The notes under the pieces were generated by a model that searched no databases, had not been told where the DNA came from, and saw only the letters and a list, made by a program, of their open reading frames with translations. Source: a candidate division WS6 bacterium GW2011_GWF2_39_15 (GTDB taxonomy: Bacteria > Patescibacteriota > Dojkabacteria > SC72). Taken from it: a stretch of DNA of 64,000 nt. The position numbers and the translations under genes were made by a program. Below are positions 17,908 through 50,375 of this stretch, piece by piece (the first letter of the stretch is position 1; each line of letters opens with the position of its first letter). The stretch is taken from the NCBI GenBank assembly GCA_000993565.1, contig LBWK01000001.1, forward strand, positions 300,208-364,207, written 5' to 3'.

Positions 17908-18159
17908 ATGAGAAATACTAAATTACAATCTATATTTGCAGTTGCCATATTAGCAATGGTTTTCTTTTTTGCTATAAACGGTAATACATTTGCAAGTGGA
18001 TATGGTCCTTACGGGCCTTATGGTCCATACGGTCCTCATAATCCCGTTGATGCAAGTATTGTAAATACAGATGTATTTTCTATAGTTGGTCTTTCTTTGT
18101 ATGGAGCAGGTAGTGCATTAATTGCAAATGCTTCAAAGCTCAAGAAACTTATTAAGTAA
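17908..18159 (+). CDS. Small secreted protein with GPY tandem repeats.
   Basis: Signal-peptide-like N-terminus. GYGPYGPYGPYGPH is encoded by 9-nt tandem DNA repeats (17998-18040). Confidence 0.45.
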   Translation: MRNTKLQSIFAVAILAMVFFFAINGNTFASGYGPYGPYGPYGPHNPVDASIVNTDVFSIVGLSLYGAGSALIANASKLKKLIK

Positions 18160-18252: not shown

Positions 18253-18486
18253 ATGATACTTGATTTGATTTCCCCCATTTTACTGTCACTTTGGTATTTT
18301 GTGATTACCTTGGGAGGCTTCTACGCCTTCTACATTGTGGTCACATCATCCTTAGTGGCAAAGAGTAAGGTGAAGCTAGTATTAATCTTAGCGTGCTTGC
18401 AAAGCGTTGTAATACCGATCATGATATCGGCTACACCCGCTGGGCTACACGCTTTGAGAGATCTTCTCACCCTACTTTTATCTTAA
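18253..18486 (+). CDS. Small hydrophobic protein (2 TM helices).
   Basis: 77-aa ORF preceded by a GGAG-like motif. Confidence 0.3.
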   Translation: MILDLISPILLSLWYFVITLGGFYAFYIVVTSSLVAKSKVKLVLILACLQSVVIPIMISATPAGLHALRDLLTLLLS

Positions 18487-19100
18487 CCGTCGTGCACTAT
18501 CAGGTGCGTTTTTAGAAATAGAGACGCACCTGCGGTTAATCCTTATATTAATGATATAGACTACATTAACCTATAGTATTTACATTTAAGACAGTATGTA
18601 CTATAATGTAACTAGCAATTTAACAATTAAATAGATTAACTTAAATCTGGTGCGCTTAAATCCTAAAAGGATTTCCAGATATAAATTAGTGATTAAAGAA
18701 ATAAGCGCCACATGTAAAACTGTGGCGCTTTCTTTAATCATTGTAAGTTGGTCAGAAAAATACATATAGAATTACATTTAAGCGAATGTAGTACTAAATG
18801 TTTCTGACCAGCTTAGAATGAAAATATAGAGGATACATAGATTAATGTTAAAAGAATATTTTTACATTAAATATGTCTCTTTTAGAAATAAAAGGACAAG
18901 TTCTTTTAAAAGCCTGATATATGATAATAGTAGTATATTTATATACTCAAATTACATATTTGATGGCAACACTCGTTGAAAAAGAATCGGACGGAAAGAT
19001 GGAAGGTATAGGATGTATAGAGTTACATCTCTTCATCGGATAAAGAGTTTTATTATTAGAATTTTTTATCTGATGAAGAGCACGCAGTGCTCTAGAAAAT
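18487..19100. other. AT-rich non-coding block dense with strong hairpins and short direct repeats.
   Basis: Hairpins: TTAACCG..CAGGTGCGT-14nt-ACGCACCTG-CGGTTAA (~18490-18545). TTAAAGAAATAAGCGCCACA-8nt-TGTGGCGCTTTCTTTAA (~18695-18740). TGGTCAGAAA-40nt(inner TACATT/AATGTA)-TTTCTGACCA (~18750-18815). CTCTTCATCGGATAAA-21nt-TTTATCTGATGAAGAG (~19030-19082). A direct repeat ttacatttaag..gtactaNaatg occurs at ~18583 and ~18770. Confidence 0.5.
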
Positions 19101-19167
19101 CCTTTGCCACGAGGGGGAAACACCCTTCATACCATCAGGTGGCCAACAAACAACTACCAAGGAGGTA

Positions 19168-19899
19168 GTGATGAAACCCATGACCGTTATTTCAAGTCTG
19201 GTTCTTTTTGCTGTTCTGCTGACTGCATGCAATATCGGCGCGGTTCAATCCGTTTCTGGCGACGTCTCCGCTTGCGGTGGCGTTGTTTCCATGAACGCTG
19301 ATGGAACCTTTACGGCAGATGTCGGCACGATCGTGTACACGATTGGTGGGATCACCCTTCACTATGAAGATGGAGATCCTCTCAAGCTTAACGCTGGGCA
19401 GTTTGCCACAGTCACTGAGCTTGTGACAATCAATCCCACGGCTGGAACCATCACTGGTAAAGTGATTCCAGGCGTCGGTACACCTCCTGCCTGCGTTGTA
19501 GCAGCTGCAGCTATCGTTCCTGCAACCATGACGCCTCAACCGGTTTCGACCGAGTTGGACTTCGTGCTTGCACACGGGGCGCACTTTGCGGATTACATCA
19601 CACCTGGCCGCGACTACCGCGAGCTGTCCGTGATGGACGTCTACAATGCGCTGAAAGCGTATGGATACGAGGACACCGATTTTCTGGTCATTGCCCACTC
19701 AGATGAAGTGCGCGAATGGCAGGAATCTCGGCTTCTCGCGAAATCCTTCGATGCCGGAAAGGCCCTCATTGCCGTTGGCGAGGTGAAGAACCTTAAATCT
19801 GACAAAGCTTTCATGCTGGTCAGTGCCAATGTGTATGATGGTCCGAATGACATCAATGGGAATCCGCTTGAGGTCTTCGACCCCACGCCCAACGAGTGA
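19168..19899 (+). CDS. Lipoprotein encoded by a GC-rich gene, probably horizontally acquired.
   Basis: Signal peptide plus lipobox LLTAC. Local GC is ~53% vs ~37% in flanks. A perfect AAGGAGGT SD sits 6 nt upstream of the ATG, unlike neighbouring genes. Confidence 0.7.
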   Translation: MMKPMTVISSLVLFAVLLTACNIGAVQSVSGDVSACGGVVSMNADGTFTADVGTIVYTIGGITLHYEDGDPLKLNAGQFATVTELVTINPTAGTITGKVIPGVGTPPACVVAAAAIVPATMTPQPVSTELDFVLAHGAHFADYITPGRDYRELSVMDVYNALKAYGYEDTDFLVIAHSDEVREWQESRLLAKSFDAGKALIAVGEVKNLKSDKAFMLVSANVYDGPNDINGNPLEVFDPTPNE

Positions 19900-19975
19900 T
19901 CCATATCACCGCTCCCTAACTTATCTCTGAAAGGAGGTTAAAAAATAAGTTTAGGGAGCGGTGGATCATTCAAAA
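19900..19975. terminator. Inverted repeat / bidirectional terminator-like stem-loop between convergent genes.
   Basis: caccgctccctaa ... ttagggagcggtg is a 13-bp perfect stem with extra flanking complementarity (gatcca/tggatc) and a ~34-nt loop. Confidence 0.5.
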
Positions 19976-19979
19976 GAAT

Positions 19980-22832
19980 CTATCTTTTGAAAACCAATCC
20001 CCAAATCCAAAAAGCAAGATACACTAAATATATCCATAACGTAGCAAACAAACCGATCATATAGATAATTTGTGGTATATACACGATTATCAGTGAATCA
20101 TAACTCTCTATATTCTTTACATACCATCCGTTTGCATAGTCGTAAGTTGTAAGTTCCTGGCTACTTAGATCTGTCACAGTTTTATTATTTCTGATACCAA
20201 TAAGTCTCCATTGGGCGTTTTTATTCTGATTAAGCGACACTACATAATTACCGACAGCATCTTTACTCCAACTTACCTGTGAACCCCAAACATAATTTTT
20301 TATCGTAAGATCTAAATTCTTCCCTCTATCAAGATTGATTCCATCTACAACCTGACCAGAGTATGATAGGGGAAGAGTAACGAATCTCACTTCTTTAATA
20401 TCAATTGAAAAAATCTTTTCTTTCTCATCATTCAAATACAGGTAAAGAGACATATCATTTTTATCCTTATACCTGTCGATATTCTTTAGATATACATAGT
20501 CAGTTACATAACCGAAAGATTCTTCACGTCTCGTAATAATCCCGTCACTCTGAGAATCTTCCCCCAATACTCCTGAGAAATAGCAGAAATTATCTTTAAG
20601 CCCAAAGATACAATACCGAATACTCTGGGTAGAATTATTCGAATAGGTTACCTTCAATATTCCTCCCTTACCTATATTACTATTCATCACAGGTTCAAAC
20701 ATACATGTCCTTTGTCCAGCAGATGTAATTCTGATACCTGAGCTCTTTTTTAGCTTTGTTATTTGAATTTCCGATGGTTCTGTATCCTCAGGATCACATG
20801 TATATCGGGAACCGTTATTCCAAACTCCGTTATTAAAGTTGTAATTTGAGATCAGATCATAATGCCCAGACTTTAAATCCAGGCTTTGGGATTCATCTTC
20901 ATTATTGATATAGAGGGAGTCTCCGACTATCGAGAACCCATTGTTCTTCGGCTCTTTGCCACATATAGATGAGTTAGGGAAATATTTGTCAACCGGGAGA
21001 CCAACTCTACACTCATTACTCCCATAGATAATTTTTGAACTAACCTGGATACTATCTTTAGAATGATCATTACATGTATTGCGATATAGAGATAATTGCC
21101 CATATTCGCTCACAAGGTTCCAGCAATCGAAATTGCTAATCAATGCCTTAAATTCATTTAACCGAACTTTAGAGCCGTCACCAGGAAGGTCTATGAAATC
21201 ATTTCGAAGAAGAATCCAATTTGTTTGCGTTCTAAATAAAAAATCATTGAGGGTGGTTGCATTTGGTTCCTGTAAGCTATTCAAAATACTGACAGTTTTG
21301 TTTCCCTGTATCTGATTGTAATACCCGTCTATGTAGTCGACATCTGCAAGTCTATGCATAATATCAGGGCCGGCATAACCCCAATCATAGTATGTATACC
21401 CATAGATATGTTTTGATAAAGGTAGAGGAAGAACTTTTTGCCCTTTGGCATTTTCATTTAAATACTCTGCCATTTCCAGATAGCCATAAGTAATTGGGCT
21501 TATCCAAGCTTCATTAATCGCCCTCCCAGGTATAACATATAGCAAAATCCCAAAGATAAATAAGAAGAAAACTATCTGTACTCTGGTAAATGTATAAACA
21601 AACTTCTCTGAAGTGAACTTGAAAAGCTGCTTGATCTCCAATTTCTGGTTAAACAACAATGCCAGCAAAAGAGACCCAATAAAGAAATACGGCATAGACC
21701 AATATGTCCAGCTGTCCCGGAATAAATCTGAGTATAATGGGATCTTTGATAAAGTTTCTGCAAATATACTGCCAAACGGAGAACCGAATCCATTTGCTAA
21801 AATACCAAAGATTATAAAAATAAATAACAACACCCAACGCTTTTTAAGATTAATCAATCCTGAGATGATCATACAGATGATAGGTACTAACCCTAGTGTC
21901 AGCATGGCTGACTTGGATATATTCCCTAGAATCGGGAAATTATGATCGCCTGGATTAATGGAACTTAAACCATGAGTCCAGGCATATGAGCCAAACCCAG
22001 CCATCGTTTCGACAAGCTTATAATCCTTTGAAAATAGTGTCGCATCATTTCTATAGTATTCCAGTAGACTATTCTGTGCGATATCCGAGTAGTTCAGACG
22101 AGAACCAAAGTAGGAGAGAAAGACCACAGTGTTCAAGAAAAGCGCAACGATAACTATTAAACATACTTCTCTAAGCCGAATTCTGATCGAGATCAGATCC
22201 ATTTTCCCTAATACTAGTACAATAGCTGGGACAAGAATCCAATAAATAAGATATATATTTGCAGTTCGCGATATCGACATCATAACCAAAGCAAATATCC
22301 CAGCTCCAAGATAGGGATTAATCGTTTTATCAAAAGTACGAGCTAGAATATAAACCAGAAGGGGTAAGGAAGCATATGCATATAGGAGATGGGGTTGTGG
22401 AAATTGAAAGCGGAGAAACACATAAACATTGAGCATAAAAAATAAACTCCCAACCCACATTGCAAGTTTGCCAAATTTCAAATAACGAAGAAGCATGAAC
22501 ATAAAGATTCCTGCAAAAGCTCTTAAAACCGTGAAGTATAGGAAGTTGGTTAAAGTTATTGACCTAACAAGCATCTGAATAATTAGCTGAGGGAGAAGAA
22601 GAAATAGTTTACTTACTGCGAAGAACTCCGGAACTCCCAGCGCTTCTCCTGACCATACATAAAGACTTCTTTTAATTTCCAAACCTATATTTATCGGATA
22701 GTCGATATCGCCACCATTTATAAGTTGACCCCACTGTCCTTTGTATGCAATTAAATGAATCGCTAGGCTTATACCTAAAAAAACGGCTAAAGGAGCGAAT
22801 TTCTTTAGCAGATTCAAGATCTTTCTTTTCAT
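19980..22832 (-). CDS. Large polytopic membrane protein with a C-terminal extracytoplasmic domain (GT-C-fold glycosyltransferase-like).
   Basis: >12 TM helices in the N-terminal ~550 aa, then a ~450-aa soluble domain. I prefer the internal ATG at 22832 (MKRKILNLLKKFAPLAVFLG), which avoids a 148-nt overlap with the divergent GT gene. The track ORF extends to 23000. Confidence 0.6.
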   Translation of the reverse strand: MKRKILNLLKKFAPLAVFLGISLAIHLIAYKGQWGQLINGGDIDYPINIGLEIKRSLYVWSGEALGVPEFFAVSKLFLLLPQLIIQMLVRSITLTNFLYFTVLRAFAGIFMFMLLRYLKFGKLAMWVGSLFFMLNVYVFLRFQFPQPHLLYAYASLPLLVYILARTFDKTINPYLGAGIFALVMMSISRTANIYLIYWILVPAIVLVLGKMDLISIRIRLREVCLIVIVALFLNTVVFLSYFGSRLNYSDIAQNSLLEYYRNDATLFSKDYKLVETMAGFGSYAWTHGLSSINPGDHNFPILGNISKSAMLTLGLVPIICMIISGLINLKKRWVLLFIFIIFGILANGFGSPFGSIFAETLSKIPLYSDLFRDSWTYWSMPYFFIGSLLLALLFNQKLEIKQLFKFTSEKFVYTFTRVQIVFFLFIFGILLYVIPGRAINEAWISPITYGYLEMAEYLNENAKGQKVLPLPLSKHIYGYTYYDWGYAGPDIMHRLADVDYIDGYYNQIQGNKTVSILNSLQEPNATTLNDFLFRTQTNWILLRNDFIDLPGDGSKVRLNEFKALISNFDCWNLVSEYGQLSLYRNTCNDHSKDSIQVSSKIIYGSNECRVGLPVDKYFPNSSICGKEPKNNGFSIVGDSLYINNEDESQSLDLKSGHYDLISNYNFNNGVWNNGSRYTCDPEDTEPSEIQITKLKKSSGIRITSAGQRTCMFEPVMNSNIGKGGILKVTYSNNSTQSIRYCIFGLKDNFCYFSGVLGEDSQSDGIITRREESFGYVTDYVYLKNIDRYKDKNDMSLYLYLNDEKEKIFSIDIKEVRFVTLPLSYSGQVVDGINLDRGKNLDLTIKNYVWGSQVSWSKDAVGNYVVSLNQNKNAQWRLIGIRNNKTVTDLSSQELTTYDYANGWYVKNIESYDSLIIVYIPQIIYMIGLFATLWIYLVYLAFWIWGLVFKR

Positions 22833-22852: not shown

Positions 22853-24037
22853 ATGTATAATTTAACCATGAAAATACTTCTAGCTGTCCCAGAATATCCT
22901 CCACATCATATTGGAGGTGGTGGTGAAGTTTACAAACAGCTTGCAACAAACTATCAGCGATTAGGGCATGAGGTAACTGTTTTATATGGATATTATCCAA
23001 ATAGGGGATTAAATTCCAAAATTAAGAGCTACAAGAAAGATAATATAATCTTCTATGAGGTCCCGGAGCTACCATACCCTAAGTCGAAACCATTTCTCAG
23101 AACCGCAATGCCAGCTACCATGAAAGCAAAAAAAGAGCTTCAGGACATTATTAGTTCTGACATTTTTGATGTCGCACACCTTCACGGATATGGTTGGCCT
23201 TTAATAAACACAATTGCAGGGCTTTGTATGAAATTTAATATTCCTTATATTTACACATTACATGGATACCCTGAGAGCCAGAATTCTTCCCCAATTTTAA
23301 GACTTATATGGAATAACTTCATATTACCAACCCAAAATAGATCCCTAAGTCAAGCCCATTCACTAACGGCAATCTCCGACTATGTGGCAAAGGATCCAAG
23401 GAACACTCAACTTAGCAAGACTCATACAATATTCAACGGAATCAATTACAGTTCATTTAGAGAGATCGCAAATGAGGTAGATATAAAGACGGAAAACAAC
23501 ATTTCAGATGATGACTTATTCATATATTCAATAGGTAGGTTGGCAGAAATGAAAGGCTTCCAGAATATCGTTAAGTTGATACCTCAGATAAATAAGCAGG
23601 GAATGAAAGTAAAATACTTAATCGCCGGTGATGATGATGGATATATGAAAGAATTGGAAAAGCTAGTTTCAAACTTAAGGTTAGAGGATCAAGTTAAGCT
23701 TGTAGGTTTTCATGGTGATGATACTAAAAAAATGTTCATAAAACAGTGTAATATATACGCAGTTCCATCGTTATGGGAACCATTTGGTTTAACCGTTCTT
23801 GAAGGAATGGTATTTGAGAAACTGATACTAACAACCGAGGCCGGAGGGATTAAGGAAGTTTTGGAGGGATATAGCAACAAGATTAATATGGATGATAAAG
23901 ATCTGATAAATAAAATCATCAGTAGAAAGCAAAATAGAAGCGAAATGGATTGGAATAGATTTAATTGGGAAACAATATCCAAGAATTATCTTAGTCTTTT
24001 AGAAGAAGCCGCTATTCATACAAAGAGATTAGCCTGA
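22853..24037 (+). CDS. Glycosyltransferase family 4 (GT-B, GT1-domain).
   Basis: N-terminal LLAVPEYPPHHIGGGGEV. C-terminal motifs VPSLWEPFGLTVLEGM match the EX7E region of GT4. Confidence 0.8.
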   Translation: MYNLTMKILLAVPEYPPHHIGGGGEVYKQLATNYQRLGHEVTVLYGYYPNRGLNSKIKSYKKDNIIFYEVPELPYPKSKPFLRTAMPATMKAKKELQDIISSDIFDVAHLHGYGWPLINTIAGLCMKFNIPYIYTLHGYPESQNSSPILRLIWNNFILPTQNRSLSQAHSLTAISDYVAKDPRNTQLSKTHTIFNGINYSSFREIANEVDIKTENNISDDDLFIYSIGRLAEMKGFQNIVKLIPQINKQGMKVKYLIAGDDDGYMKELEKLVSNLRLEDQVKLVGFHGDDTKKMFIKQCNIYAVPSLWEPFGLTVLEGMVFEKLILTTEAGGIKEVLEGYSNKINMDDKDLINKIISRKQNRSEMDWNRFNWETISKNYLSLLEEAAIHTKRLA

Positions 24038-24828: not shown

Positions 24829-26469
24829 GTGAGATACTCTTCTTATATGAAAATCCTAACCTGGTTTAAATCACATTACTATATTATTCTTCCAATCCTT
24901 CTCCTCTCAGTAATCTCTTTAATGAATTTCCATTCCAATCAATTTATAATGGGATTGGATAATATATCTCCATACTTTAATTCAAGAGCAGTGCTAGATA
25001 AGCTATTTGGAAGTGAAACTGGTGCTGTATTCGCGAACCTCCCCTTTCTATTTACACTCCCTATATTTGAACTTCTTAAACTCATTTCAATTCCCATATG
25101 GGCAATCAATCAGCTGTATTTGATGTTCGGACTTTGGATGGGAGTATTAGGAACGGGATACCTCGTATACAGAATCACAAAGTCTAAAAAAGGCTTTCTG
25201 TTTGGATCAGTACTATCTTTGGCAAACCTTGCAACTTTCTGGATCTTTAATCAGCCTAACTACTTCTTTGTAGCCGCATTTGCATCTATACCATGGTTAA
25301 TGGAGTGGGGGATAGGAAAGCCAGAGAAAAACCTTGTCTTAACAATAATCAGGATCACCGCCGTTATACTATTCTTCCAGACGACAATGAATCTAGTGGT
25401 CTTCATCTCATACCTCTTTGCAATTCTTCTAATACAATTTGCTATAAACACTAGCAGAGTGGAATGGAAGAGTAATTTAATAACTCAGACAAAAAGGCTG
25501 GGAATTATTCTATTAATACTTTTAATTGTATGGCAAGCAGGAATATTTCTGACAGGAAAATCCGATTTTGTTGTTTCTAAATTAGTAACATACTACTCAA
25601 GTATCAAAGAGAACCCTCTAACAAAAGCCATTACTAAAGATCTTCAGGCATCAGGAATAATTAATAACAATATTGTCAATAATATTGTTTTCAAAAACTC
25701 ATGGGTTGAAACTCATACAACGGAGGGCATCAGACTATTTCAAAGCTATGATTACTACTCAGGTCCTATATTCCTAATTGGACTTATACCGTTCGTACTA
25801 GCCCTTTCGACCCTTTTCAATAGTGATCGACAAAAGAAAATTCCTTTACACTTTGCTCTCATAGTGGGACTCATACTAATGAGCAGTATTATGTTGAAGG
25901 CAACTCAAGGGGTACCAGTATTAAGTGAGGCTTTCAGGTGGAGTGCAAGTAAGTTCTGGCCCCTTATTATCTTTCCGATTATCCTCCTCGCTACAGACTC
26001 TCTAGTCACGTTAAAAAGGCCTTTGATAACCGGGATCGTCTTCGGTCTGCTCCTCATTTATATCCTCCCAATGTTTACGGGTAATCTCTTTTCCAAAGAA
26101 CTTGTAACAAAGCTACCTGGCGAGTATTTCAAACTGGATAACAATATTAAAAGTGAAACTCTCTATTACTATCTTCCTGCTCCTCAGGATCTATATTTTT
26201 ATACATACAAATTCGGATATTTTGGTTCCGATTTTGTTTCGTATATGACAAAAGGAGACACTCAAAAAACCGGGATTCTCTCATACTTCAATAATGTTGA
26301 GAGGTACAAGAGTATTAGTAAATCCCTCGTAAACTGTGAGTCGAAAATTGAGAATATTAAGATAATCTGGGATTCAAATGTAGAGACAGGGAGTAATATA
26401 ATTAAAAATTGTTTGGACAGCAAATATAATCTAACTTCAAAAGACAGGGGATTATATATATATGAGTAA
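24829..26469 (+). CDS. Polytopic membrane protein (GT-C / polymerase-like).
   Basis: 546 aa with ~12 TM helices. It sits inside a glycosyltransferase cluster. Confidence 0.5.
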   Translation: MRYSSYMKILTWFKSHYYIILPILLLSVISLMNFHSNQFIMGLDNISPYFNSRAVLDKLFGSETGAVFANLPFLFTLPIFELLKLISIPIWAINQLYLMFGLWMGVLGTGYLVYRITKSKKGFLFGSVLSLANLATFWIFNQPNYFFVAAFASIPWLMEWGIGKPEKNLVLTIIRITAVILFFQTTMNLVVFISYLFAILLIQFAINTSRVEWKSNLITQTKRLGIILLILLIVWQAGIFLTGKSDFVVSKLVTYYSSIKENPLTKAITKDLQASGIINNNIVNNIVFKNSWVETHTTEGIRLFQSYDYYSGPIFLIGLIPFVLALSTLFNSDRQKKIPLHFALIVGLILMSSIMLKATQGVPVLSEAFRWSASKFWPLIIFPIILLATDSLVTLKRPLITGIVFGLLLIYILPMFTGNLFSKELVTKLPGEYFKLDNNIKSETLYYYLPAPQDLYFYTYKFGYFGSDFVSYMTKGDTQKTGILSYFNNVERYKSISKSLVNCESKIENIKIIWDSNVETGSNIIKNCLDSKYNLTSKDRGLYIYE

Positions 26470-27691
26470 AGACACAGTACTGGTAATAACCTCATATCCT
26501 TCTAAAGATACTAAACATGATAAAGGAGTGAGCGGACTGGCCTCATTTGCAAAAAACACTGTAGAGTCTATACCTAAAGATAATATTAATATAATTGTTC
26601 TTGCGGAAAAGAAAGACAAGTTTGATGTGTACAAAGAGGGTGATGTACTAGTTAAAAGAATATGGCAGAGAAATACCCTCAGATTATATTTCCAGCTTTT
26701 CAAACAGGCTTGGATCTACAGGAAGGTGTCAAATAAAATACTTCTGGAGTTTGAATACTCTGTCTACGGATCAAACTTTGTAACCGGATTTATGCCAATA
26801 TTCATCATTGCCGCACGAGTACTTGGGTACAAGACGGTATCGGTTATGCACCAGGTCATTAGAAGTAGGGAAATTCTTTCACAAAACTTAGGTCTTGCTC
26901 AAAGAAGTTTTAAGCTGCATATTGTCTACTTTCTGACCCAAATATTTACACGTTTCTTCACATTCGTTTCTTCTCATATTGTGGTGCTTGATGAAGTACA
27001 CAAGCAAAATTTGAAAGATATTACAAACATCAAAAAGGTAACAGTCATACCACACGGAGTAGAGCAGAGAGACGTAGTACAAAAAGAGACTGGAAAGAAA
27101 ATCAACCTTTTATATTTTGGATTCCTTGCTTGGTATAAAGGGGCAGACTGGTTAATAGATTCTTATCTGGAATTCTCTAAACATAACCCGGAACTGGCTG
27201 ATAAATTCCACATAACTATGGCAGGAGGTGAGAGCCCTACACAGTCGGTAAATCCTAAATATAGGGAATATTATGACGGTATGGTAAGGAAGGCCAACGA
27301 GAATAAGAATATAACCATAACAGGGTTTGTTAAGGAAGAGGACTTCGACACTATCTTTGGTAATGCAGATATTCAGATATTGCCTTATAGGGCCATTATG
27401 TCCTCCAGTGGGCCACTGTCATGGGCTTTTACTTATGAAAAACCTGTTTTGTTGTCTAATATTCTAAGCCCTTATCTCGAAACTGAAGATATAAAGGAAG
27501 TTCTAAATGAACTTAAAATAAGCAGCAACCAATTTACTTTCAATTTGGATAAGCCCTTTAAACTTTTTGAAAGACTTCTAGAAATGCCAAAGCCAGATTT
27601 AAACAGATTAAGTGAATTTTCAAGAGAGGTTAAAGGTAAGCGCAATTGGAAATGGCTTGGGGAGAAGTATCTGTCTATTATATTAAGCTAA
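26462..27691 (+). CDS. Glycosyltransferase, GT1/GT4-like (GT-B).
   Basis: The C-terminal domain carries LLYFGFLAWYKGADWLIDS ... ILPYRAIMSSSGPLSWAFTYEKPVLLSN (GT-B sugar-donor domain). Its start overlaps the upstream gene. Confidence 0.55.
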   Translation: MSKDTVLVITSYPSKDTKHDKGVSGLASFAKNTVESIPKDNINIIVLAEKKDKFDVYKEGDVLVKRIWQRNTLRLYFQLFKQAWIYRKVSNKILLEFEYSVYGSNFVTGFMPIFIIAARVLGYKTVSVMHQVIRSREILSQNLGLAQRSFKLHIVYFLTQIFTRFFTFVSSHIVVLDEVHKQNLKDITNIKKVTVIPHGVEQRDVVQKETGKKINLLYFGFLAWYKGADWLIDSYLEFSKHNPELADKFHITMAGGESPTQSVNPKYREYYDGMVRKANENKNITITGFVKEEDFDTIFGNADIQILPYRAIMSSSGPLSWAFTYEKPVLLSNILSPYLETEDIKEVLNELKISSNQFTFNLDKPFKLFERLLEMPKPDLNRLSEFSREVKGKRNWKWLGEKYLSIILS

Positions 27692-27701
27692 TACAAAGCC
27701 T

Positions 27702-28481
27702 TTAAATCTTATTGTAGTAAATATCAACCTTCTGACGAATCTCATCTTCAGTGAATCTTCCTGTTAACCGTAAAAGGTTTTCAATAACAGATTTGTCAAC
27801 GCCGGACTTTCTCATCCATTTAAAATGATATCCCACAGAGTCAATACTTTGTCTATTGTAACCCTCAACTAATGGTCTCCACACATTATTCATCATCTCT
27901 AAAAGTAGATCCCTATTCATTCGTTCAGGAAAGATACTACGAATACAAACGGCTAGACCTTTAACTAATTCAACTGTTCTAATATCTGAAAGGGTAATGT
28001 AAAATAGCCCGCCATTTGACTCTCGGATACCATGTTCACGACTCAATACATCGTAACGCTGAACAGCAGATACTTCTCTAAACACAACTTCTGCATCCTC
28101 ATTAGGATAAAGCACTACAGAGGTTGTCACATGGGCAATTAATTGCTGCAAAGAAGTTAATACCCGACCATGTATTCGAGCCTCTTCATTTGGGACAGTT
28201 TTCCTCTGGTGTACATATGAAGAAGCAGAAACTATATCTGTCTTGACTACGTTACTCACAGTATACTCCCCTGACTGCTCCATAAAGTACCTTCTAGCTT
28301 GCTCCAGGCTCTGCATAAATGAGACATATTCATCAAAAGTCATGCCTTCCTTAATATTTTCGTAAAATGCTCTCTCTCCTCCTGTTGGAGAGCCAGATCC
28401 TGGTCCTAAATCTGTAGCGACTCCATCAACAATTTCGCCACCATCCTGATCGCGTTTGGGAGTAATTGGGTAATTAGTCAT
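27702..28481 (-). CDS. Hypothetical protein, co-operonic with the GT2 gene.
   Basis: 259-aa ORF with an 8-nt overlap with the upstream GT2 gene. Confidence 0.45.
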   Translation of the reverse strand: MTNYPITPKRDQDGGEIVDGVATDLGPGSGSPTGGERAFYENIKEGMTFDEYVSFMQSLEQARRYFMEQSGEYTVSNVVKTDIVSASSYVHQRKTVPNEEARIHGRVLTSLQQLIAHVTTSVVLYPNEDAEVVFREVSAVQRYDVLSREHGIRESNGGLFYITLSDIRTVELVKGLAVCIRSIFPERMNRDLLLEMMNNVWRPLVEGYNRQSIDSVGYHFKWMRKSGVDKSVIENLLRLTGRFTEDEIRQKVDIYYNKI

Positions 28482-29253
28482 TCTTCATACTATTTAAATT
28501 AGCTCTTGAATAATTATATCTGATTTTACTGAAACTCTTCTTTAACTGATACATCTTTAGCTTAGCAAGCTCCAAAGAAACCTCTTTAAAAGCCTTTCTG
28601 AAGTTCAGTTTGGACTCAGCTTTATATATCCATTTGATAGGGAACTCCCTTACTTTAAAACCATTAAACTTACTATCAATGAGTAAGTTTACATCAACCG
28701 TCCACTTATTGGCAACTAATATTTTCATCAGTTTCTTTGCTACATGTCTCTTCATTACCTTTACTGCACACTGAGTATCTGCAAACTTAAGTCCAAACAG
28801 AGTTCTTACTGCAACGTTAAACATTCTTGAAAGAACAAATCTGTAGACTGGCATATCACCGGATATTTCAGACTTTCTCATATATCTGCTACCCATTACC
28901 AGATCAAGCTCCGGATTCTTTTTAAGCATATTAAATCCTTTAACCAAGTCTTTTATTGAAGATGAACCGTCAGCATCCTGATATGCAACGTACTTTCCTT
29001 TACCAATTTTGACACCTCTGGCGATTGCACCACCTTTACCCGTATAACCCTTAATATTCATAACTTTTATGAATTCATAGCTCTTAGCTACCTCTTTGAC
29101 AACATCAACCGTATTGTCTGTGGAATTATTTACAACAACAATTACCTCACATTCAATACTGGACTTTGAGAAGTATTTCCCAAGTTCCATTAGAGTGGGT
29201 CTTATCCTCTTTTCTTCATTGTATGCCGGTATAATTACCGTTAAGTCTTTCAT
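28474..29253 (-). CDS. Glycosyltransferase family 2, polyprenol-phosphate sugar synthase (DPM1/GtrB-like).
   Basis: VIIPAYNEE, VIVVVNNSTDNT, GKGGAIARG and YQDADGS are GT2 DXD-type motifs. Confidence 0.8.
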   Translation of the reverse strand: MKDLTVIIPAYNEEKRIRPTLMELGKYFSKSSIECEVIVVVNNSTDNTVDVVKEVAKSYEFIKVMNIKGYTGKGGAIARGVKIGKGKYVAYQDADGSSSIKDLVKGFNMLKKNPELDLVMGSRYMRKSEISGDMPVYRFVLSRMFNVAVRTLFGLKFADTQCAVKVMKRHVAKKLMKILVANKWTVDVNLLIDSKFNGFKVREFPIKWIYKAESKLNFRKAFKEVSLELAKLKMYQLKKSFSKIRYNYSRANLNSMKND

Positions 29254-29907: not shown

Positions 29908-32900
29908 ATGGGACTTAACGCCGGTGGTATGCAAGAAATACATCCTGATATCCAGTCAGATAGAGAGTTAATAACCTCTGGTAAAGTTCCTCAGGGAACT
30001 GCTGAAGCTAATGACAAATTAAATACTCCAGTAGTAGATATTACAAAGACAACTGGTTATTATGGGAATGATTTAACAACCGATCCTCTCCCGCTTACTG
30101 CTGAAGCGACAGCAAAGATACTTAGAAGAGGTCCTGCACAAAATGAAGATAATGGAGAAACAGGCTTGAAAGCCGGCGAGGAAAGACCTAAAACTCAATC
30201 TGCTATTCCTGTAGCCAACGGATCAGCTTATGTCGAATCAGTTAGTCCTTCAACCCCTGCACAGCAGACACCAGACACCGAAGGACTTGATCAACTTAAT
30301 ACCCCCTTATATACGCTTACTGGAGGAGGAGAGACCACTTCGACTAATGTAACTACGCCAAATGCAACAGAAGGTAAAGCAGGTAAAAACGGTACTGATA
30401 CATCAGATGACTTAGTAGCAAAGCTAAGATCAATGTTGTCCCAGGCTGACAAAGATAAGCCTAAAGAACACACTATAGAAACACCTGTAGCCCAGGATCT
30501 CAATCAGGCAGTTACAGCTTTGGCTGCAGAAGTTGCTAAGGAACCTGAAAATAATTCAAAGAAGGAAGAGTTGAACGGCTTAAAGGAATTAAGTCAATCT
30601 GTAACGAACCTCTCACAACAGATAAACCAGGTGAAAATAGAAATCACAAATCAAGTTAATACTCAGGTTGCCCAAATTACTGCAAAGATGGAAGAATCTA
30701 AAGATAAGCTGGCAGGAACGGTAAACCACTATTATATGCAAGGGGGCTCAGTATTTCACGGGACAGTAGGAGCAGGTACACATATAGAAGTTACAAATAC
30801 GGCAAGTAATTTTAATACAGGAGCAGCAGGAATAAGCGTTAGAAATACAGCAGACCACGGAAGTACAATAAACAATGGCAATATTGTAGATGCAGGTGTT
30901 AATCTGGGTATACTAGATTTGAATGCAATGATGGAAGAAGCTGAAAATTTGGACAGGCTTGCAGACGAACCAGAAGCGCCAACTTCTCTAAGTGAGGCGG
31001 CAAGGGACACAGCCGATAAGGCGAGAGAGCTTACAGAGGATATAAAGACAAGAAAAACTGATCGAGTAACAGATCCGGCAGTTACACCTGATTCAAGTTC
31101 AACAACTCATCCACCCGTAATAAAACCTCAACCAAATGTAACACCGAACGATAATCCTCCTACACCTCCACAACCGGCAGTAGCAGTAACAGATGACAGT
31201 AGTGAGCATAAAGACACCGGAGTAACCCCAGAAGAGCAACCTACTTCCGATCCTAAGAAAGCAGCAGAGAATCTAGTAGGGCCATTGACTCCTGAAGAGT
31301 CACAGGAATTTGATAATGCGAATGAAAAGAAAGGTTTTCTCTTCAGCATAAAGAGAATGTTCAGCGGTGAAAACTGGAAGAGATGGGTACCAACAGTGAT
31401 AGGGTCGATCGCAGGTTCATTCGGGGTAAAACTGTTTGCAGGAGCAGCTCTATCAATGGGTCCAATTGGAACCGCATTACTCGGAGGTGCAATGGCTGGT
31501 TTTGCCATATATTCAGGATATAGAGCTATCAAGAACTTAAGTGAGGCAGCCAAGGCGGAAGGTAAATCTGTATGGCAGGTAATGGGCAACTTGGATTTTG
31601 TAAAAGGAGCCTTACTTGGAGGATTAATTTCTGGGGTAGGTAAAGCTTCAGCGAAGTTTATCCCTGGATTCGGTTCGCTTATGGCACTTGGACTTGAAGG
31701 AGGAACTTCGTGGCTATTTGAAAATCACCTTAACAAGAAACAGCAGGAATTAGTTAACAAATACATGGATACATACCAGGCACGCAGGTATGCAAATCTT
31801 AAGGATAAAGGATATGTCATTAGAGGTGCTGAAGGAGCACCTGCTGTAGGAATGGAATCCATACTTAAAGATATGACAAGTGCACCTTCAGAATCAGAAA
31901 AGAAGGTAGCAAAGAGAGCTGCACTTGCTTCCCTTATACATCTCTACAGCATAACTAAGGATGATGCCCATAAATTTGTTGAGTATACGATAAAGGAGAA
32001 CGGTGTCGATAAGGTGATTAAGGTTGATATTACACAAATTGCGATTGATGAAGCAGAAGGAAGTACAGAGAAATACAGAATGCTTCAACTTAAAGATACT
32101 GACAAGATTAATGTCGAGAAATTTATAGATACATTAGATACAGCCAAACTTACATCAGCGATTCAAGATGCATGGAACAAAACCGATGCAACTAAGAGGG
32201 CTGATATGGCTAAGGATCTTGTAAACCTCTTCGTTGGCTTGGAAGGCACAGAAGTAGAGAAGATTATGTCGGAAGAGAGAAAGAGCTATCTCTCATGGAT
32301 CAACTTCACAACTGGGTTACACTTTGGTATGGCGGCAGTAAATGTTGGATCCTCTCTTGCAGGAGCTTACGGAGCATTCAGAGACAATTTTGGTGTCAAT
32401 CATGATGCACAGGGAGTAAACACCTCAGATTCTCAACAAGCAACAGAAGATTATAGAAGTGCCCATCCAGAAGCCCCGCAGGCAGAAGTAGAGAGGGTAG
32501 TAAATGCTGAAGGCCACATAATTGATAAGGTAGATGTAGACGGAGGCGGCGTAGACTACTACGTCGACCAAACTACAAACCAATATGTTGTACTTTCTGG
32601 GACCGGTGCTGAAAGCGTATTTGAAATACAACACCCGGATCTTGGACAGGTAACCGCAACTGAAGTAACTACCCACGGAGATACAGGCATTGTTGCCACT
32701 TTGAGTGATAATGCAGGAAAAGTTGTTGGTGTAACATATGCCGACTCTACTGGACACATTGGAGTTTTGGATATGAACGGCGTAGGTCAGCATCTATTTG
32801 CAGGTGGAGGAGAGAGCCCAATACACGGAGTAACTCTCACTGATATACAGCCAAATGGTGATGCAACATTAGTTTTAGACAATGTAAACCATCAAGTAAA

Positions 32901-35259
32901 TCTAGGAAATCTTAACCTTGAACTTGACGGATCATCAACATCAGAGGTTCAGACACAGATTGGTGTATTGATGCCACAGAGTGGAGATTCAGTAAATAGT
33001 ATGCTTCACCATACAATTGAACAGGCTAAAACTCTGAATCCTAATTTGCAACAATATGACAATCTGGAACTTGAGAGAATGCTTTACCAGGAAGGAAGTG
33101 GTATCCATGCTAATGACGCCGCGATAAGGCAGGAGTTAGGTATCAGGGGAGCACTTGATGTATCAGAGGAATGGAGCTGGAAAGATTCACCTACAATTAT
33201 GTCCTGGCTAACGGAGCTTAACGGTGGGAATACTGTGGAACTAGGTTCACAGACAGTTACAGGCGGAACACCTGGTGTAAACACTTTCTTTGAAGGGCCG
33301 GAAGTTTCCGCATTTGACGTTGCAAATGCAGGATCTGCACCTGGAGAATCAGGTGGCTTTATCAGTGTAATGGATAGAATCGTAGAGCCATCACTTCTTG
33401 CTTTGGTAGGTGGTGTGATGGCAGGTGTATTTGCTTCACAACCTAAGAGTGGCGGTATTTCAAGGCAGAACGATGTAAATACCGCAACGGCAAAAGCCGG
33501 TGATGATAAGACAAAAGATGACAAAGGCAAGGGAGTAAGCAAAGAAACCTCAGTTGAATTAGCAGCAGGAGAAGGAGCTGTTGAAAAGAAAGTCGGAGGG
33601 CCAAAGGATGTAATCGTAAATCAGATACTTAAGAACGTTATACCTAATAAATATGTTGAGATAGCTGGAAAGAAATATATTCAGGTAGAGAGTGCACCTG
33701 GGCAATGGAAAGAAAAAGATGTTAAAGACGCCCAGCCTATATCAGCTGAAGACCTTGCAGATCTACTCTTGAATCAAACGGATAAGAATCTAAGAAGTAA
33801 AGATCTATCTGGAATACTTAATAGTGCGGCCATCAAAGGTGGGGCAACTATAAAATTAACGGAGGAAGATGGTTCTGAGACAACATATAAGAAGTCCGTA
33901 AAAGACAATGAACCAGGAAAGAGGCCTGTCAAATTAGTATCATGGATTAACACAGAGACAAAGAAGAGTAGCGATGTTCTAACTAGCGATGCACTTGCGA
34001 CCAAGATCCTTGATTTGAAGGAAAAGACAGTTACAGTATCAACGCCATCTGGAAGTCCACAAGGAGGACCAAGTGCTGAAGCTGGTGGAGACGAAACAAA
34101 GAAAGAGGGTGAGGTAGATAAGGAAAAAGCTCTGAAAGAAACTTTAAACAATATATTAGAAACTCTTCATATTGATAAAAAGCAAGTTGTTATTAATGGT
34201 GAAAAATACGAATATAACAAGGATGCCAAAATATGGATAAAGTCAGGTGCATTGTTCAACAAGAATCTAATTCAGAAAGGCTCTGATAATCTTAGTGACC
34301 AGCAAGTTGTTGAATCCTGGATTAAACTTGAGTCAAAACAGCTTGGGAAGGATTTGGAAACAACTCTTGGGAACGTCGACAGTGGGAAAAAGATAAATGT
34401 TATTGACGAAATATTTAGTAAGACACCGACCTCAGTATTGAAACAAGCAAATTACAATGGCGATGTTTATACTTATGATTCAGAAAAAGATGTATGGAAT
34501 AAGGATAAAAAGAGTAAAACGGCAAGTCCAAAGAGTATCACAGGATCTGGAATGACAACCTATATAGCGAATGGTACGGCCAACGCACTCCCAAGCAAAA
34601 AAGAAAATCTGATTTGGAAATCAGATACCAGAGCTTTTAATGACAAAGATTTGGCATTAGAAATTGCAAAACTGAGGGTAAGCACTAAGGAAGTAAAGTC
34701 TGAAACAAAATCCGCAGACAGTAATGCAGAAGGGGAAAAGAACAAGGAAGAAAAAGAGAAGAAAGAAAGTAAGGGCAGAAAACTCCTTAAGACAGCGCTT
34801 ATAGTATTAGCCGTAGCAGGAGGTATTACCTCATATGCAGTTGGTGGTTGGCAAGTAGCAGCAATTACATCAGGCATCAGCTGGTTGACGACACTTGGTC
34901 TAAATATCGGAGAAGGTTTGGCACAAAAAGGTATAAGCAAGAGACAAGCCGAAGCCGCTGAACTAGCAGAAAAGCTTAAAAACGAGAAACGAGCACTGAA
35001 GCCTGATGAAGAAAAGTCGTTGGAGGAAAGGAAGAGGAAGGACGAAAGGGCTAGAAATATTATTTATTGGCTCAAATTTGCCAGTAAAGTCACGGGTGCC
35101 CTATCAATATCATCTGGAGCTTCTGCACTGTTAGGTTTAGTGATTGATAAGTTCCAGATTAACATAAAAGGAATAATCGGAGGTGCTTTCAATAGACCAG
35201 AGATAAACCAAGTTCCTTTTGAACAAACAATAGACGAATCACTTAACTTAGGAAAGTAA
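29908..35259 (+). CDS. Giant 1783-aa membrane/surface protein.
   Basis: Uninterrupted 5.35-kb ORF. The first 274 aa hold a T/P-rich stretch and a coiled coil. The shared 52-aa module YYMQGGSVFHGTVG...NNGNI follows at aa 275-326. A glycine-zipper TM cluster (WVPTVIGSIAGSFGVKLFAGAALSMGPIGTALLGGAMAGFAIY...) follows at ~aa 490-600. The C-terminal third has degenerate repeats (G-x-x-Y-x-Y-x5-W-x-K, four copies). A C-terminal TM pair is present (LIVLAVAGGITSYAVGGWQVAAI). Confidence 0.8.
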   Translation: MGLNAGGMQEIHPDIQSDRELITSGKVPQGTAEANDKLNTPVVDITKTTGYYGNDLTTDPLPLTAEATAKILRRGPAQNEDNGETGLKAGEERPKTQSAIPVANGSAYVESVSPSTPAQQTPDTEGLDQLNTPLYTLTGGGETTSTNVTTPNATEGKAGKNGTDTSDDLVAKLRSMLSQADKDKPKEHTIETPVAQDLNQAVTALAAEVAKEPENNSKKEELNGLKELSQSVTNLSQQINQVKIEITNQVNTQVAQITAKMEESKDKLAGTVNHYYMQGGSVFHGTVGAGTHIEVTNTASNFNTGAAGISVRNTADHGSTINNGNIVDAGVNLGILDLNAMMEEAENLDRLADEPEAPTSLSEAARDTADKARELTEDIKTRKTDRVTDPAVTPDSSSTTHPPVIKPQPNVTPNDNPPTPPQPAVAVTDDSSEHKDTGVTPEEQPTSDPKKAAENLVGPLTPEESQEFDNANEKKGFLFSIKRMFSGENWKRWVPTVIGSIAGSFGVKLFAGAALSMGPIGTALLGGAMAGFAIYSGYRAIKNLSEAAKAEGKSVWQVMGNLDFVKGALLGGLISGVGKASAKFIPGFGSLMALGLEGGTSWLFENHLNKKQQELVNKYMDTYQARRYANLKDKGYVIRGAEGAPAVGMESILKDMTSAPSESEKKVAKRAALASLIHLYSITKDDAHKFVEYTIKENGVDKVIKVDITQIAIDEAEGSTEKYRMLQLKDTDKINVEKFIDTLDTAKLTSAIQDAWNKTDATKRADMAKDLVNLFVGLEGTEVEKIMSEERKSYLSWINFTTGLHFGMAAVNVGSSLAGAYGAFRDNFGVNHDAQGVNTSDSQQATEDYRSAHPEAPQAEVERVVNAEGHIIDKVDVDGGGVDYYVDQTTNQYVVLSGTGAESVFEIQHPDLGQVTATEVTTHGDTGIVATLSDNAGKVVGVTYADSTGHIGVLDMNGVGQHLFAGGGESPIHGVTLTDIQPNGDATLVLDNVNHQVNLGNLNLELDGSSTSEVQTQIGVLMPQSGDSVNSMLHHTIEQAKTLNPNLQQYDNLELERMLYQEGSGIHANDAAIRQELGIRGALDVSEEWSWKDSPTIMSWLTELNGGNTVELGSQTVTGGTPGVNTFFEGPEVSAFDVANAGSAPGESGGFISVMDRIVEPSLLALVGGVMAGVFASQPKSGGISRQNDVNTATAKAGDDKTKDDKGKGVSKETSVELAAGEGAVEKKVGGPKDVIVNQILKNVIPNKYVEIAGKKYIQVESAPGQWKEKDVKDAQPISAEDLADLLLNQTDKNLRSKDLSGILNSAAIKGGATIKLTEEDGSETTYKKSVKDNEPGKRPVKLVSWINTETKKSSDVLTSDALATKILDLKEKTVTVSTPSGSPQGGPSAEAGGDETKKEGEVDKEKALKETLNNILETLHIDKKQVVINGEKYEYNKDAKIWIKSGALFNKNLIQKGSDNLSDQQVVESWIKLESKQLGKDLETTLGNVDSGKKINVIDEIFSKTPTSVLKQANYNGDVYTYDSEKDVWNKDKKSKTASPKSITGSGMTTYIANGTANALPSKKENLIWKSDTRAFNDKDLALEIAKLRVSTKEVKSETKSADSNAEGEKNKEEKEKKESKGRKLLKTALIVLAVAGGITSYAVGGWQVAAITSGISWLTTLGLNIGEGLAQKGISKRQAEAAELAEKLKNEKRALKPDEEKSLEERKRKDERARNIIYWLKFASKVTGALSISSGASALLGLVIDKFQINIKGIIGGAFNRPEINQVPFEQTIDESLNLGK
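30730..30886 (+). repeat. Coding copy A of a 157-bp inverted repeat (the partner is 37090..37246).
   Basis: By eye it aligns to the reverse complement of 37090..37246 with ~13 mismatches in 157 nt. It is codon-aligned, starting at codon 275 of the giant gene. Confidence 0.8.
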
Positions 35260-50235: not shown

Positions 50236-50264
50236 AAGGAGTGTAGCTAAAAATAATATACCTA

Positions 50265-50348: not shown

Positions 50349-50375
50349 ACTATGCGAATTATACTATTTACTCGC

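Follow-up and report, generated by a model that had tools for sequence, protein, structure and literature searches.

A conserved slot for a GC-rich, exchangeable lipoprotein gene in candidate division WS6 bacteria

A 64,000-nucleotide stretch of DNA from the candidate division WS6 bacterium GW2011_GWF2_39_15 (Candidatus Dojkabacteria, candidate phyla radiation (CPR)), in the following called the window, contains a lipoprotein gene that differs from the other genes of the window in guanine-cytosine (GC) content, codon usage and ribosome-binding site. The segment 18570-19971, in which the gene is preceded by a promoter and a long structured leader and followed by a 3' stem-loop, is probably a dedicated expression slot for a hypervariable surface lipoprotein, in which a high GC content is maintained and alleles are exchanged within the clade. 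Related loci found in sequence collections are designated L001-L013, with the window corresponding to L004; several of them are short contigs. The elements of the slot are as follows.

18570..18607, + strand: promoter with an extended -35 motif CCTATAGTATTTACA, a 17-nucleotide spacer and the -10 hexamer TATAAT, 11/12 matches to the sigma-70 consensus
18612..18915, + strand: conserved distal leader RNA with long hairpins in series, delineated by conservation and folding
18872..18898, + strand: small leader hairpin AUGUCUC...GGAC, pairing register assigned by eye
19029..19100, + strand: proximal leader hairpins, a 24-base-pair (bp) stem (inverted repeat I2) and then AGAGC...GCUCU
19159-19166, + strand: Shine-Dalgarno (SD) sequence AAGGAGGT, identified by SD/anti-SD duplex energy
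19171..19899, + strand: lipoprotein open reading frame (ORF) of 242 amino acids, KKR06284.1, 24 kDa product
19228-19230, + strand: codon of Cys20, at the end of the signal peptide and lipobox MKPMTVISSLVLFAVLLTAC
~19231-19485, + strand: variable beta-rich N domain
~19486-19554, + strand: Ala/Thr/Pro-rich linker
~19555-19896, + strand: conserved alpha/beta C domain
19894..19971, + strand: 3' stem-loop, closing stem GUGAUCC...GGAUCAU starting in the last codons, between the convergent lipoprotein and membrane protein genes

Composition, conservation and exchange of the lipoprotein gene

The ORF 19168..19899 has a GC content of 53.3% (GC1 0.61, GC2 0.43 and GC3 0.56 at the three codon positions), compared to 38.8% for the window (z = 5.4). 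It ranks first among sliding windows of 732 nucleotides, the best of which elsewhere in the 64 kb reaches 45.9%, and the GC content climbs from ~0.2-0.35 to >0.5 over ~100 nucleotides at either end of the ORF. The start codon is likely ATG 19171 rather than GTG 19168. The GC3 of the other window genes that were measured is 0.17-0.41, so that amino-acid composition alone is ruled out as the source of the difference. The GC-rich outlier noted in a preliminary description of this DNA, made from the sequence alone, is therefore real, and it extends to codon usage.

The lipoprotein family has about eleven members in public data. A search of 5.8 billion clustered proteins gave four matches and a profile search of 1.84 billion representatives gave ten; widening the profile in a second word-index search did not enlarge the family. 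No homologue was detected in GTDB genomes, JGI metagenomes, IMG/VR (protein profile), INPHARED phages or PLSDB plasmids. Wherever genomic context is available, the lipoprotein gene adjoins the genes of a membrane protein of ~950 amino acids, which is a candidate glycosyltransferase (GT) of the GT-C type, and of a GT4 glycosyltransferase. This synteny is present in at least seven other contigs, from loci L001, L002, L005, L007, L008/L009, L010/L011 and L013, and upstream genes for proteins of 405 and 83 amino acids are also common to the loci. Among the window, L001 and L002, the flanking proteins are 38-52% identical and the lipoproteins 38-53% identical, which indicates that the gene is as old as its neighbourhood.

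The lipoprotein alleles have GC contents of 48-61% and GC3 values of 0.49-0.77, whereas the GC3 of their neighbours is 0.11-0.52 and the host backgrounds have 30-47% GC. The values for the individual loci are listed below, with lipoprotein GC and GC3 given in this order.

Window: 0.533/0.56; neighbours GC3 0.17-0.41
L001: 0.525/0.57; neighbours GC3 0.11-0.27; contrast 52.5% vs 30.3% GC
L002: 0.49/0.49; neighbours GC3 0.40-0.43
L005: 0.509/0.54; neighbours GC3 0.29-0.48 (0.41-0.43 in four downstream genes)
L007: 0.547/0.66; neighbours GC3 0.23-0.25; contrast 54.7% vs ~30% GC
L008: 0.607/0.77; neighbours GC3 0.35-0.52, barring one small gene; contrast 60.7% vs 44-47% GC
L010: 0.587/0.66; GC3 0.24-0.28 in three downstream genes and 0.19-0.45 in the rest; contrast 58.7% vs 29-32% GC downstream
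L013: 0.511/0.55; background 30% GC
L003: lipoprotein GC 0.484; rest of the short contig 0.327
L012: lipoprotein GC 0.514; flank mostly 0.28-0.44 in 100-nucleotide windows

At residues that are identical between family members, the codons are identical in a proportion of 0.33-0.37, compared to 0.33-0.38 expected, and only the two closest pairs exceed the expectation. Synonymous sites are thus saturated, with no hidden constraint at the nucleotide level. With divergence to saturation in hosts that have 30% GC, the signature of a donor would have been erased, and some force has to maintain GC3. These comparisons indicate that the GC-richness is actively maintained and is not the fading signature of a donor.

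The excess is uneven among bases and codons. The frequency of C at third codon positions (C3) is two- to threefold higher in the lipoprotein genes (0.33-0.47 vs 0.11-0.29), and that of A (A3) is lower (0.09-0.27 vs 0.24-0.38). NNC codons take the place of NNT across all two-fold pyrimidine families. ATA (share of 0.07 in lipoprotein genes vs 0.34), AGA (0.13 vs 0.42) and TTA are avoided, and CGC (0.36 vs 0.09) and CGT are used. The ratios of GAA to GAG and of CAA to CAG are nearly unchanged, and the frequency of G at third positions (G3) is even lower in L002 and L005, although G3 and C3 are both raised at four-fold degenerate sites. The shift resembles the optimal codons of highly expressed genes more closely than it does a generic high-GC codon table or the outcome of a strand-symmetric process.

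The comparison of L002 with L005 resolves the borders of an allele replacement. The flanks of the two loci are nearly identical: the GT-C candidates are 100% identical in amino acids with a synonymous divergence (dS) of 0.012, the GT4 proteins are 97% identical, and the leaders and 3' untranslated regions (UTRs) are 92-100% and 100% identical in nucleotides, respectively. In contrast, the ORFs are 52-78% identical per block of 60 nucleotides and 64% identical in amino acids, and their proportion of synonymous differences (pS) of 0.76 corresponds to saturation. The breakpoints are sharp and are positioned ~30 nucleotides before the ATG, at the SD sequence, and ~25 nucleotides before the stop codon. 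Near-identical flanks around an anciently diverged ORF indicate that the allele was replaced at the ORF borders and not hypermutated. In the second case, the identity of L013 and L001 is 96.6% in the DNA upstream, which contains the leader, and 92.5% in that downstream, and the 4.9 kb between, which encode the lipoprotein, the GT-C candidate and GT4, cannot be aligned. The GT-C candidate and GT4 of L013 have their nearest relatives in L008 (33% and 41% amino-acid identity, respectively), and these co-replaced genes remain at the host GC content of ~30%. The alignments point to an ORF that is exchanged as a cassette within the clade by way of clade-specific flanks. A diversity-generating retroelement target was considered and rejected: no second copy of any ORF segment is present in the other 63 kb of the window, the allele differences affect all bases and include insertions and deletions, and the proportion of nonsynonymous differences (pN) is far below pS. 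No reverse transcriptase was found among the window ORFs scanned with Pfam, a scan that was incomplete.

The sense frame of the ORF is under purifying selection (pN 0.26-0.30 vs pS 0.68-0.76). Its product starts with a signal peptide that ends in the lipobox L-T-A-C, in agreement with the lipoprotein pattern [LVI][ASTVI][GAS]C with an invariant cysteine. Among the four full-length members aligned, A19 and C20 do not vary, and across ten relatives they are nearly invariant. The alignment of relatives confirms the signal peptide and Cys20 of the lipobox lipoprotein (LLTAC) recognized in the preliminary description, and the Ala/Thr/Pro-rich middle described there is found in the ORF translation. 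An ORF at 48752-49594 matches PF01790 LGT at E = 3e-4 and 20.7 bits (cut-off 24.9) without an NCBIfam match; a sortase, a VanY-type peptidase and this Lgt-like ORF are located near the slot or elsewhere in the window.

No match to the lipoprotein was identified in Pfam, NCBIfam or PDB by sequence or profile searches. The full-length AlphaFold model is mediocre (pLDDT 67), with a beta-rich and poorly modelled N domain, and the model of the C domain, a small alpha/beta domain, is good (pLDDT 81). Neither model has a significant Foldseek match in PDB. The family is a mosaic of domains: one N domain is combined with differing, unrelated C domains in L007, L008, L010, L012 and L013, and the C domain occurs on its own behind a transmembrane anchor in L006. 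The product is a hypervariable lipoprotein that is likely exposed on the cell surface. Locus L006 (positions 1-1041) is a 1041-nucleotide JGI contig with a 121-nucleotide terminal direct repeat, which indicates a 920-bp circle or a tandem array. Its unit comprises the promoter motif of the family, a leader, an SD sequence, the gene for the transmembrane-anchored C-domain homologue (59% GC) and a 3' structure that is rich in GC.

Promoter, leader, ribosome-binding site and 3' stem-loop

The promoter core TTTACA-17-TATAAT is positioned at 18579-18607 and is immediately preceded by CCTATAGTA; its form in L001 is TTGACA-17-TATAAT. The slot promoter motif can also be written TATAGTRTTGAC-N17-TATAAT. 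The pattern TATAGTRTTKMY-N15-19-TAWAAT occurs exactly once per locus in L001, L002, L004, L005, L006 and L013, in each case ahead of the lipoprotein gene, and a related form of the promoter is visible in L008. Transcription probably starts near the promoter.

The block upstream of the ORF, which had been described as an unusual hairpin-rich AT block, is indeed strongly structured and consists of the conserved promoter and a structured leader of ~560 nucleotides. The predicted folding energy of the whole leader (18612-19170, 559 nucleotides) is -185.5 kcal/mol compared to -104.6 kcal/mol for shuffled sequences (z -14.35), and the minimum free energy of its distal part is -96.7 compared to -47.6 kcal/mol (z -10.8). 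Over ~340 nucleotides (18570-18910), the window and L001 are 84-94% identical in 50-nucleotide windows, whereas their identity does not exceed 70-80% even in the most strongly conserved coding part of the ORF, and the proteins encoded around the slot are about 50% identical. The distal leader is also found in L007 and L013. Four of its 86 predicted base pairs have compensatory changes; the covariation support is thin because the alignable sequences are too similar. The most widely kept leader element is the AUGUCUC...GGAC hairpin, which is present in the window, L001, L007, L013, L002 and L005, and in an altered but still pairing form in L008. The proximal hairpins are kept in the window, L001, L013 and L003, with two compensatory pairs.

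In more distant loci the sequence of the leader differs and its structure is equally strong (z -7.7 in L005 and -12.4 in L010). A 1.2-kb gene-free stretch precedes the ORF in L010/L011 (8757-10000), the last 700 nucleotides of which have the z of -12.4 and no Rfam match. A search with a pattern of the leader DNA recovered one JGI contig (L013) and nothing in GTDB genomes or IMG/VR. The covariance model of the distal leader (R1) found the window, L001, L007 and L013 but no more distant loci, and leader homology to the latter is thus supported for the promoter motif and the AUGUCUC...GGAC hairpin alone. Rfam searches of the leader and the 3' structure returned no family at the gathering threshold and only chance-level microRNA and small-RNA matches in E-value mode. 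The threshold was reached solely by transfer RNAs (tRNAs) and by a DUF3800-IX RNA elsewhere in L001. A transfer-messenger RNA (tmRNA) or another known RNA was ruled out, as ARAGORN predicted no tmRNA and Rfam no family, and a miniature inverted-repeat transposable element or other repeat element was ruled out by the single copy of the leader per locus. The protein and RNA families of the slot thus appear to be new, lying outside all Pfam, NCBIfam and Rfam families tested.

The calculated SD/anti-SD duplex energy of the lipoprotein gene is -12.6 kcal/mol, the next best value among the 45 window genes is -7.1 kcal/mol and the median is about +0.3 kcal/mol. With 43 of the 45 genes essentially devoid of an SD sequence (weaker than -4.1 kcal/mol), the lipoprotein gene has the only strong SD in the window, in agreement with the SD-poor genome proposed previously. 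The perfect SD sequence reported for the gene is strong, but the spacing between the octamer AAGGAGGT and ATG 19171 is four nucleotides and not six; in the homologues the start codon follows GGAGG after 6-9 nucleotides. The SD sequences of the homologues are the strongest or second strongest of their loci in L001, L005, L007, L008 and L011, where the locus median is ~0. GGAGG is over-represented in the window (128 occurrences compared to 91 +/- 9 expected), and this lack of avoidance fits ribosomes that normally ignore SD pairing. Initiation in this WS6 genome may accordingly be independent of SD sequences.

A predicted membrane protein of 73 amino acids is encoded divergently from the lipoprotein gene in L008 (9156-9377, - strand). 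Its gene has 54.5% GC, a GC3 of 0.70 compared to 0.35-0.52 in the other genes, and the top SD of the locus (-16.4 kcal/mol), indicating that the lipoprotein gene may not be alone in its class. Genes that are both GC-rich and SD-led may thus form a small class.

The 13-bp perfect inverted repeat that had been noticed after the ORF (19907-19919 / 19951-19963) forms the core of a 78-nucleotide hairpin at 19894-19971, with a predicted free energy of -39.9 kcal/mol (z -7.8). In L001, L002/L005 and L003, a closing stem GUGAUC...GAUCAC surrounds either one or two hairpins (z -6.5 to -7.9), so the elements have their architecture in common, but not their sequence. The loop region of the window hairpin contains a further perfect copy of AAGGAGGT (19931-19938), which is not followed by a start codon. 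The octamer occurs five times in the window compared to 2.9 expected, and the copy in the loop may therefore be due to chance.

Expression of the slot and alternative explanations of its composition

The near-consensus promoter would start a transcript with a structured leader of ~560 nucleotides that may serve for stability, control or both, and the strong SD would enable SD-dependent initiation in an otherwise SD-independent cell. The C-rich, A-poor ORF would be selected at the level of the transcript for a very abundant product, and the 3' stem-loop would end the unit as a protective or terminating structure. An abundant lipid-anchored surface protein, tied to the GT-C/GT4 module, would thus be made. 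Its antigenic type may be switched by homologous replacement with crossovers in the conserved leader and 3' arms. Such replacement would reach between strains and species of the clade and would sometimes include the whole block of lipoprotein, GT-C candidate and GT4; the presumed pressure for allele change is phage or host interaction.

The leading candidate for the force that keeps the GC content high is selection on the transcript, for efficient translation, stability of the messenger RNA (mRNA) or both. The SD, promoter, leader and 3' hairpin all point in the same direction as such selection for an abundant product, and the gene may accordingly be highly expressed. Several observations weigh against this interpretation of the slot. 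The only ribosomal-protein gene available, that of L28 in L011, has an NNC share of 0.25 compared to 0.77 in the lipoprotein gene (n = 20 codons), which gives no support to a set of optimal codons common to both. An Akashi-type test of selection for translational accuracy, which has low power, was negative for conserved residues, with odds ratios of 1.15 (p = 0.38) for GC-ending and 1.00 for C-ending codons. CPR bacteria are thought to be slow-growing, so that translational selection should be weak in them. The 3' hairpin is not followed by a U tract, which places it outside the classical model of an intrinsic terminator. The family is tiny, with the eleven or so members given above, the GT-C candidate of the window itself has no significant family match in Pfam, NCBIfam or PDB searches, and the argument for glycosylation consists of gene linkage and the Thr/Pro-rich linker.

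It is conceivable, albeit unlikely, that the slot belongs to a separate regime of gene expression in SD-independent CPR bacteria, in which the leader RNA (~340-560 nucleotides), the lone strong SD and the C-rich, A-poor ORF were co-selected on one mRNA that is treated unlike the rest. Possible mechanisms are translation exclusively by ribosomes with an exposed anti-SD, as with rpsU in Flavobacteria, or a factor that binds the leader. If this were true, the GC excess of 15-25 points at saturated synonymous sites would be a readout of the regime and not of ancestry.

GC-biased gene conversion at a recombination hotspot, which would raise GC3 within the tract that is exchanged most, is a doubtful cause of the excess. 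The GC-rich tract and the replaced tract of L002 and L005 do have the same borders, at the SD and in the region of the stop codon, and the joint rise of G3 and C3 at four-fold sites, the lack of an excess of codon bias at conserved residues and the unbiased L28 gene would all be expected of it. However, conversion should be strand-symmetric, whereas C-ending codons increase far more than G-ending ones, and the GAA/GAG and CAA/CAG ratios barely move. Reported effects of GC-biased gene conversion in bacteria amount to a few percent and not to 15-25 points. Moreover, the GT-C and GT4 genes that were replaced together with the ORF in L013 compared to L001 have the GC content of the host, so that recombination alone does not account for the GC island.

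Repeated import, at a rate faster than amelioration, from a GC-rich source outside the sampled diversity (for example the organism that hosts these episymbionts, or an undiscovered mobile element) is rather improbable. Horizontal replacement of alleles is clear, the GC content, codon usage and SD all look foreign in comparison to the host genome, and the 920-bp unit of L006 with its terminal repeat fits a circle or a tandem array. Nevertheless, no homologue outside the slot was found in the collections searched, including those of phages, plasmids and viruses. Replacement relies on the clade-specific promoter motif, leader hairpin and 3' closing stem, and donors must therefore belong to the same clade. 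In the window, L001 and L002, the ORF has diverged in step with its flanks, and the preference for GAA over GAG and for C over G is unlike a generic high-GC codon table.

The preliminary description had proposed a recent acquisition from a higher-GC donor, which the strong compositional contrast and the foreign-looking ribosome-binding site would suggest. The horizontal component of this proposal stands to the extent that the ORF moves between strains, but a single recent import into this genome is very improbable. Equally GC-rich orthologues fill the same slot in seven other loci of sister genomes, the divergence of the protein equals that of the flanks, and the synonymous sites are saturated. 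No high-GC, phage or plasmid homologue that could represent the donor was present in any collection searched. The ORF borders are devoid of mobility genes, tRNAs and meaningful flanking direct repeats: the sole tRNA gene of the window is at 50264-50349 and the closest integrase-family gene (37334-38644) is ~17 kb away. The latter encodes a 436-aa (amino-acid) tyrosine recombinase (Phage_integrase), and an 840-aa homologue of TrwB/VirD4-like coupling proteins is encoded at 43582-46104; both flank ruvABC/yebC. A DUF87/TrwB protein similar to the 840-aa one is encoded near the slot in L010.

A function that overlaps the coding sequence, either a structured RNA within the ORF or an antisense gene (19192-19698, 168 aa), has a minimal probability. 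Long antisense ORFs are present in the window and in the homologues, but their lengths and positions vary, as expected of GC-rich DNA with few stop codons, synonymous positions are conserved no more than by chance, and pN of the sense frame is far below pS.

The chimeric mis-assembly of a higher-GC fragment, which had been named as the alternative to acquisition, is excluded for practical purposes, despite the sharp steps in GC at the ORF borders, because the NCBI contig, an independent assembly and the recurring synteny agree. The GyrB sequences of the window and of GW2011_GWF2_39_15 are 100% identical, and the lipoprotein (KKR06284.1, UT34_C0001G0324) and its convergent neighbour (KKR06285.1) are adjacent entries of one 868,911-bp contig. 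Both genes are also present in the independent Logan assembly of SRR3309375, and the junctions are reproduced in NCBI, JGI and ENA records and in related contigs. In other samples, at least seven contigs have this gene order as well, and the conserved leader and 3' structure are continuous with the ORF.

Neighbouring genes, comparison with known systems and implications

Downstream of the slot, the window encodes the following putative glycosylation genes.

19980..22832, - strand: polytopic membrane protein of 950 aa, GT-C (AftD-like) candidate, KKR06285.1, synteny partner of the lipoprotein gene
22868..24037, + strand: GT4 glycosyltransferase (Pfam Glyco_transf_4 and Glycos_transf_1; NCBIfam GT4)
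24829..29253: rest of the glycosylation cluster, including 546-aa and 259-aa proteins without assignment
26462-27691: second GT4-like gene
28474-29253: GT2 resembling polyprenyl-phosphate sugar synthases

The homologue of the GT-C candidate in L002 (51% identical) passes the threshold of PF11847 GT-C_AftD (27.6 vs cut-off 26 bits), and those of L001 and L010 have sub-threshold matches in the same region. The GT-C candidate and GT4 most likely glycosylate the lipoprotein or build a glycan layer around it, as suggested by their co-replacement with the lipoprotein, its lipid anchor and the Thr/Pro/Ala linker.

Other genes near the slots vary in their conservation. The 83-aa secreted protein encoded upstream (17908-18159) has GPYGPYGPYGP repeats, a hydrophobic C-terminus and a GC3 of only 0.17. 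Its homologue in L001 is 52% identical and keeps its position relative to the slot, and genes of 83 and 85 aa in L005 and L008 match it by size alone. A DUF3800 gene is inserted in L001 between a 78-aa gene and the lipoprotein leader, where the window has a hydrophobic ORF of 77 aa (18253-18486); the DUF3800-IX RNA (L001:2421-2491, Rfam RF02968, 59.7 bits) is located beside it. A gene of the bAvd/23S_rRNA_IVP family is found 3 kb upstream of the lipoprotein gene in L010/L011 (6898-7245). A 1783-aa ORF of the window, the 'giant gene' (29908-35259), has a purine-rich skew and a slightly elevated GC content (0.41-0.45).

Genes of major surface and surface-layer (S-layer) proteins, for example Lactobacillus slpA, have long structured 5' UTRs. 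The WS6 slot resembles them in its consensus-like promoter, long stable leader, atypical codons and strong 3' hairpin, features that are characteristic of S-layer-type expression units, as well as in its strain-variable alleles and linkage to glycosylation genes. In contrast to S-layer proteins, the WS6 product is a small lipid-anchored protein of two domains, without evidence of lattice formation. The WS6 leader of ~560 nucleotides is far longer and more conserved in sequence than a plain stabiliser needs, and the gene is a lone SD-led gene in an SD-less setting. Deeply diverged allelic blocks within conserved flanking DNA are shared with serotype-determining glycan loci (O-antigen, capsule). 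By analogy, the locus may work like major surface or S-layer expression units and like polymorphic glycan loci of the serotype type.

The lone strong SD amid SD-less genes has a counterpart in rpsU of Flavobacterium johnsoniae (bS21), one strong-SD gene in an SD-blind bacterium (PMC13000453; also PMC7797042). However, the flavobacterial ribosomal protein occludes the anti-SD and autoregulates, so product and logic differ from those in WS6, and the codon and GC anomaly of WS6 has no counterpart there. Within the CPR, some Parcubacteria are reported to lack the anti-SD (PMC9297842). The phase-variable S-layer lipoproteins of Bacteroides thetaiotaomicron (bioRxiv 10.1101/2025.05.01.651756) also represent a varied surface lipoprotein in an SD-poor lineage, with plausible phage pressure in common, but they undergo on/off phase variation, whereas WS6 swaps whole alleles. 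In actinobacteria, lipoproteins are reported to be glycosylated by a GT-C enzyme together with a polyprenyl-phosphate sugar synthase (PMC3460810), a parallel to the WS6 cluster, in which a lipoprotein gene with a Thr/Pro-rich linker is accompanied by genes of a GT-C candidate, of GT4 and of a Ppm-like GT2. Compared with the actinobacterial system, the GT-C candidate of WS6 is AftD-like and weakly supported, glycosylation is putative, and the compositional island is limited to the lipoprotein ORF.

Horizontally acquired islands have a similarly sharp compositional break and a content that differs between close strains, but the WS6 slot is conserved in the clade, its borders have no integrase, tRNA or repeats, and all alleles are GC-rich irrespective of the GC content of the host. 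The succession of a promoter-proximal slot, a variable ORF and a structured inverted repeat is reminiscent of integron cassettes. An integron cassette was nevertheless rejected, because the 3' hairpin is the same in L002 and L005 while the ORF differs, which places the hairpin outside the replaced tract, so that it does not travel with the ORF. In addition, no IntI is adjacent, and the nearest tyrosine recombinase is the one ~17 kb away. The core site of attC is GTTRRRY, and by eye the WS6 3' sequences do not fit it. A literature search found no description of the locus or its accessions, and no previous account of a synonymous GC excess of 15-25 points that extends across a clade but is restricted to a single ORF, of its coupling to a lone strong SD, or of the highly conserved leader.

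The slot demonstrates that the textbook signature of foreign DNA in GC content, codons and ribosome-binding site can be a stable, clade-wide trait of one resident slot. Composition-based screens of CPR genomes for horizontal gene transfer or contamination would misclassify its gene. A family with 48-61% GC in hosts with 30-47% GC provides a natural test case for synonymous composition versus mutation pressure. The leader and the 3' element represent new conserved RNA structures and, together with the lone-SD gene, may be used as handles on translation initiation in CPR bacteria. The lipoprotein, whose gene is linked to a glycosylation module, is probably a major and variable surface antigen of WS6/Dojkabacteria and would as such be relevant to host attachment and phage evasion in these uncultured episymbionts.

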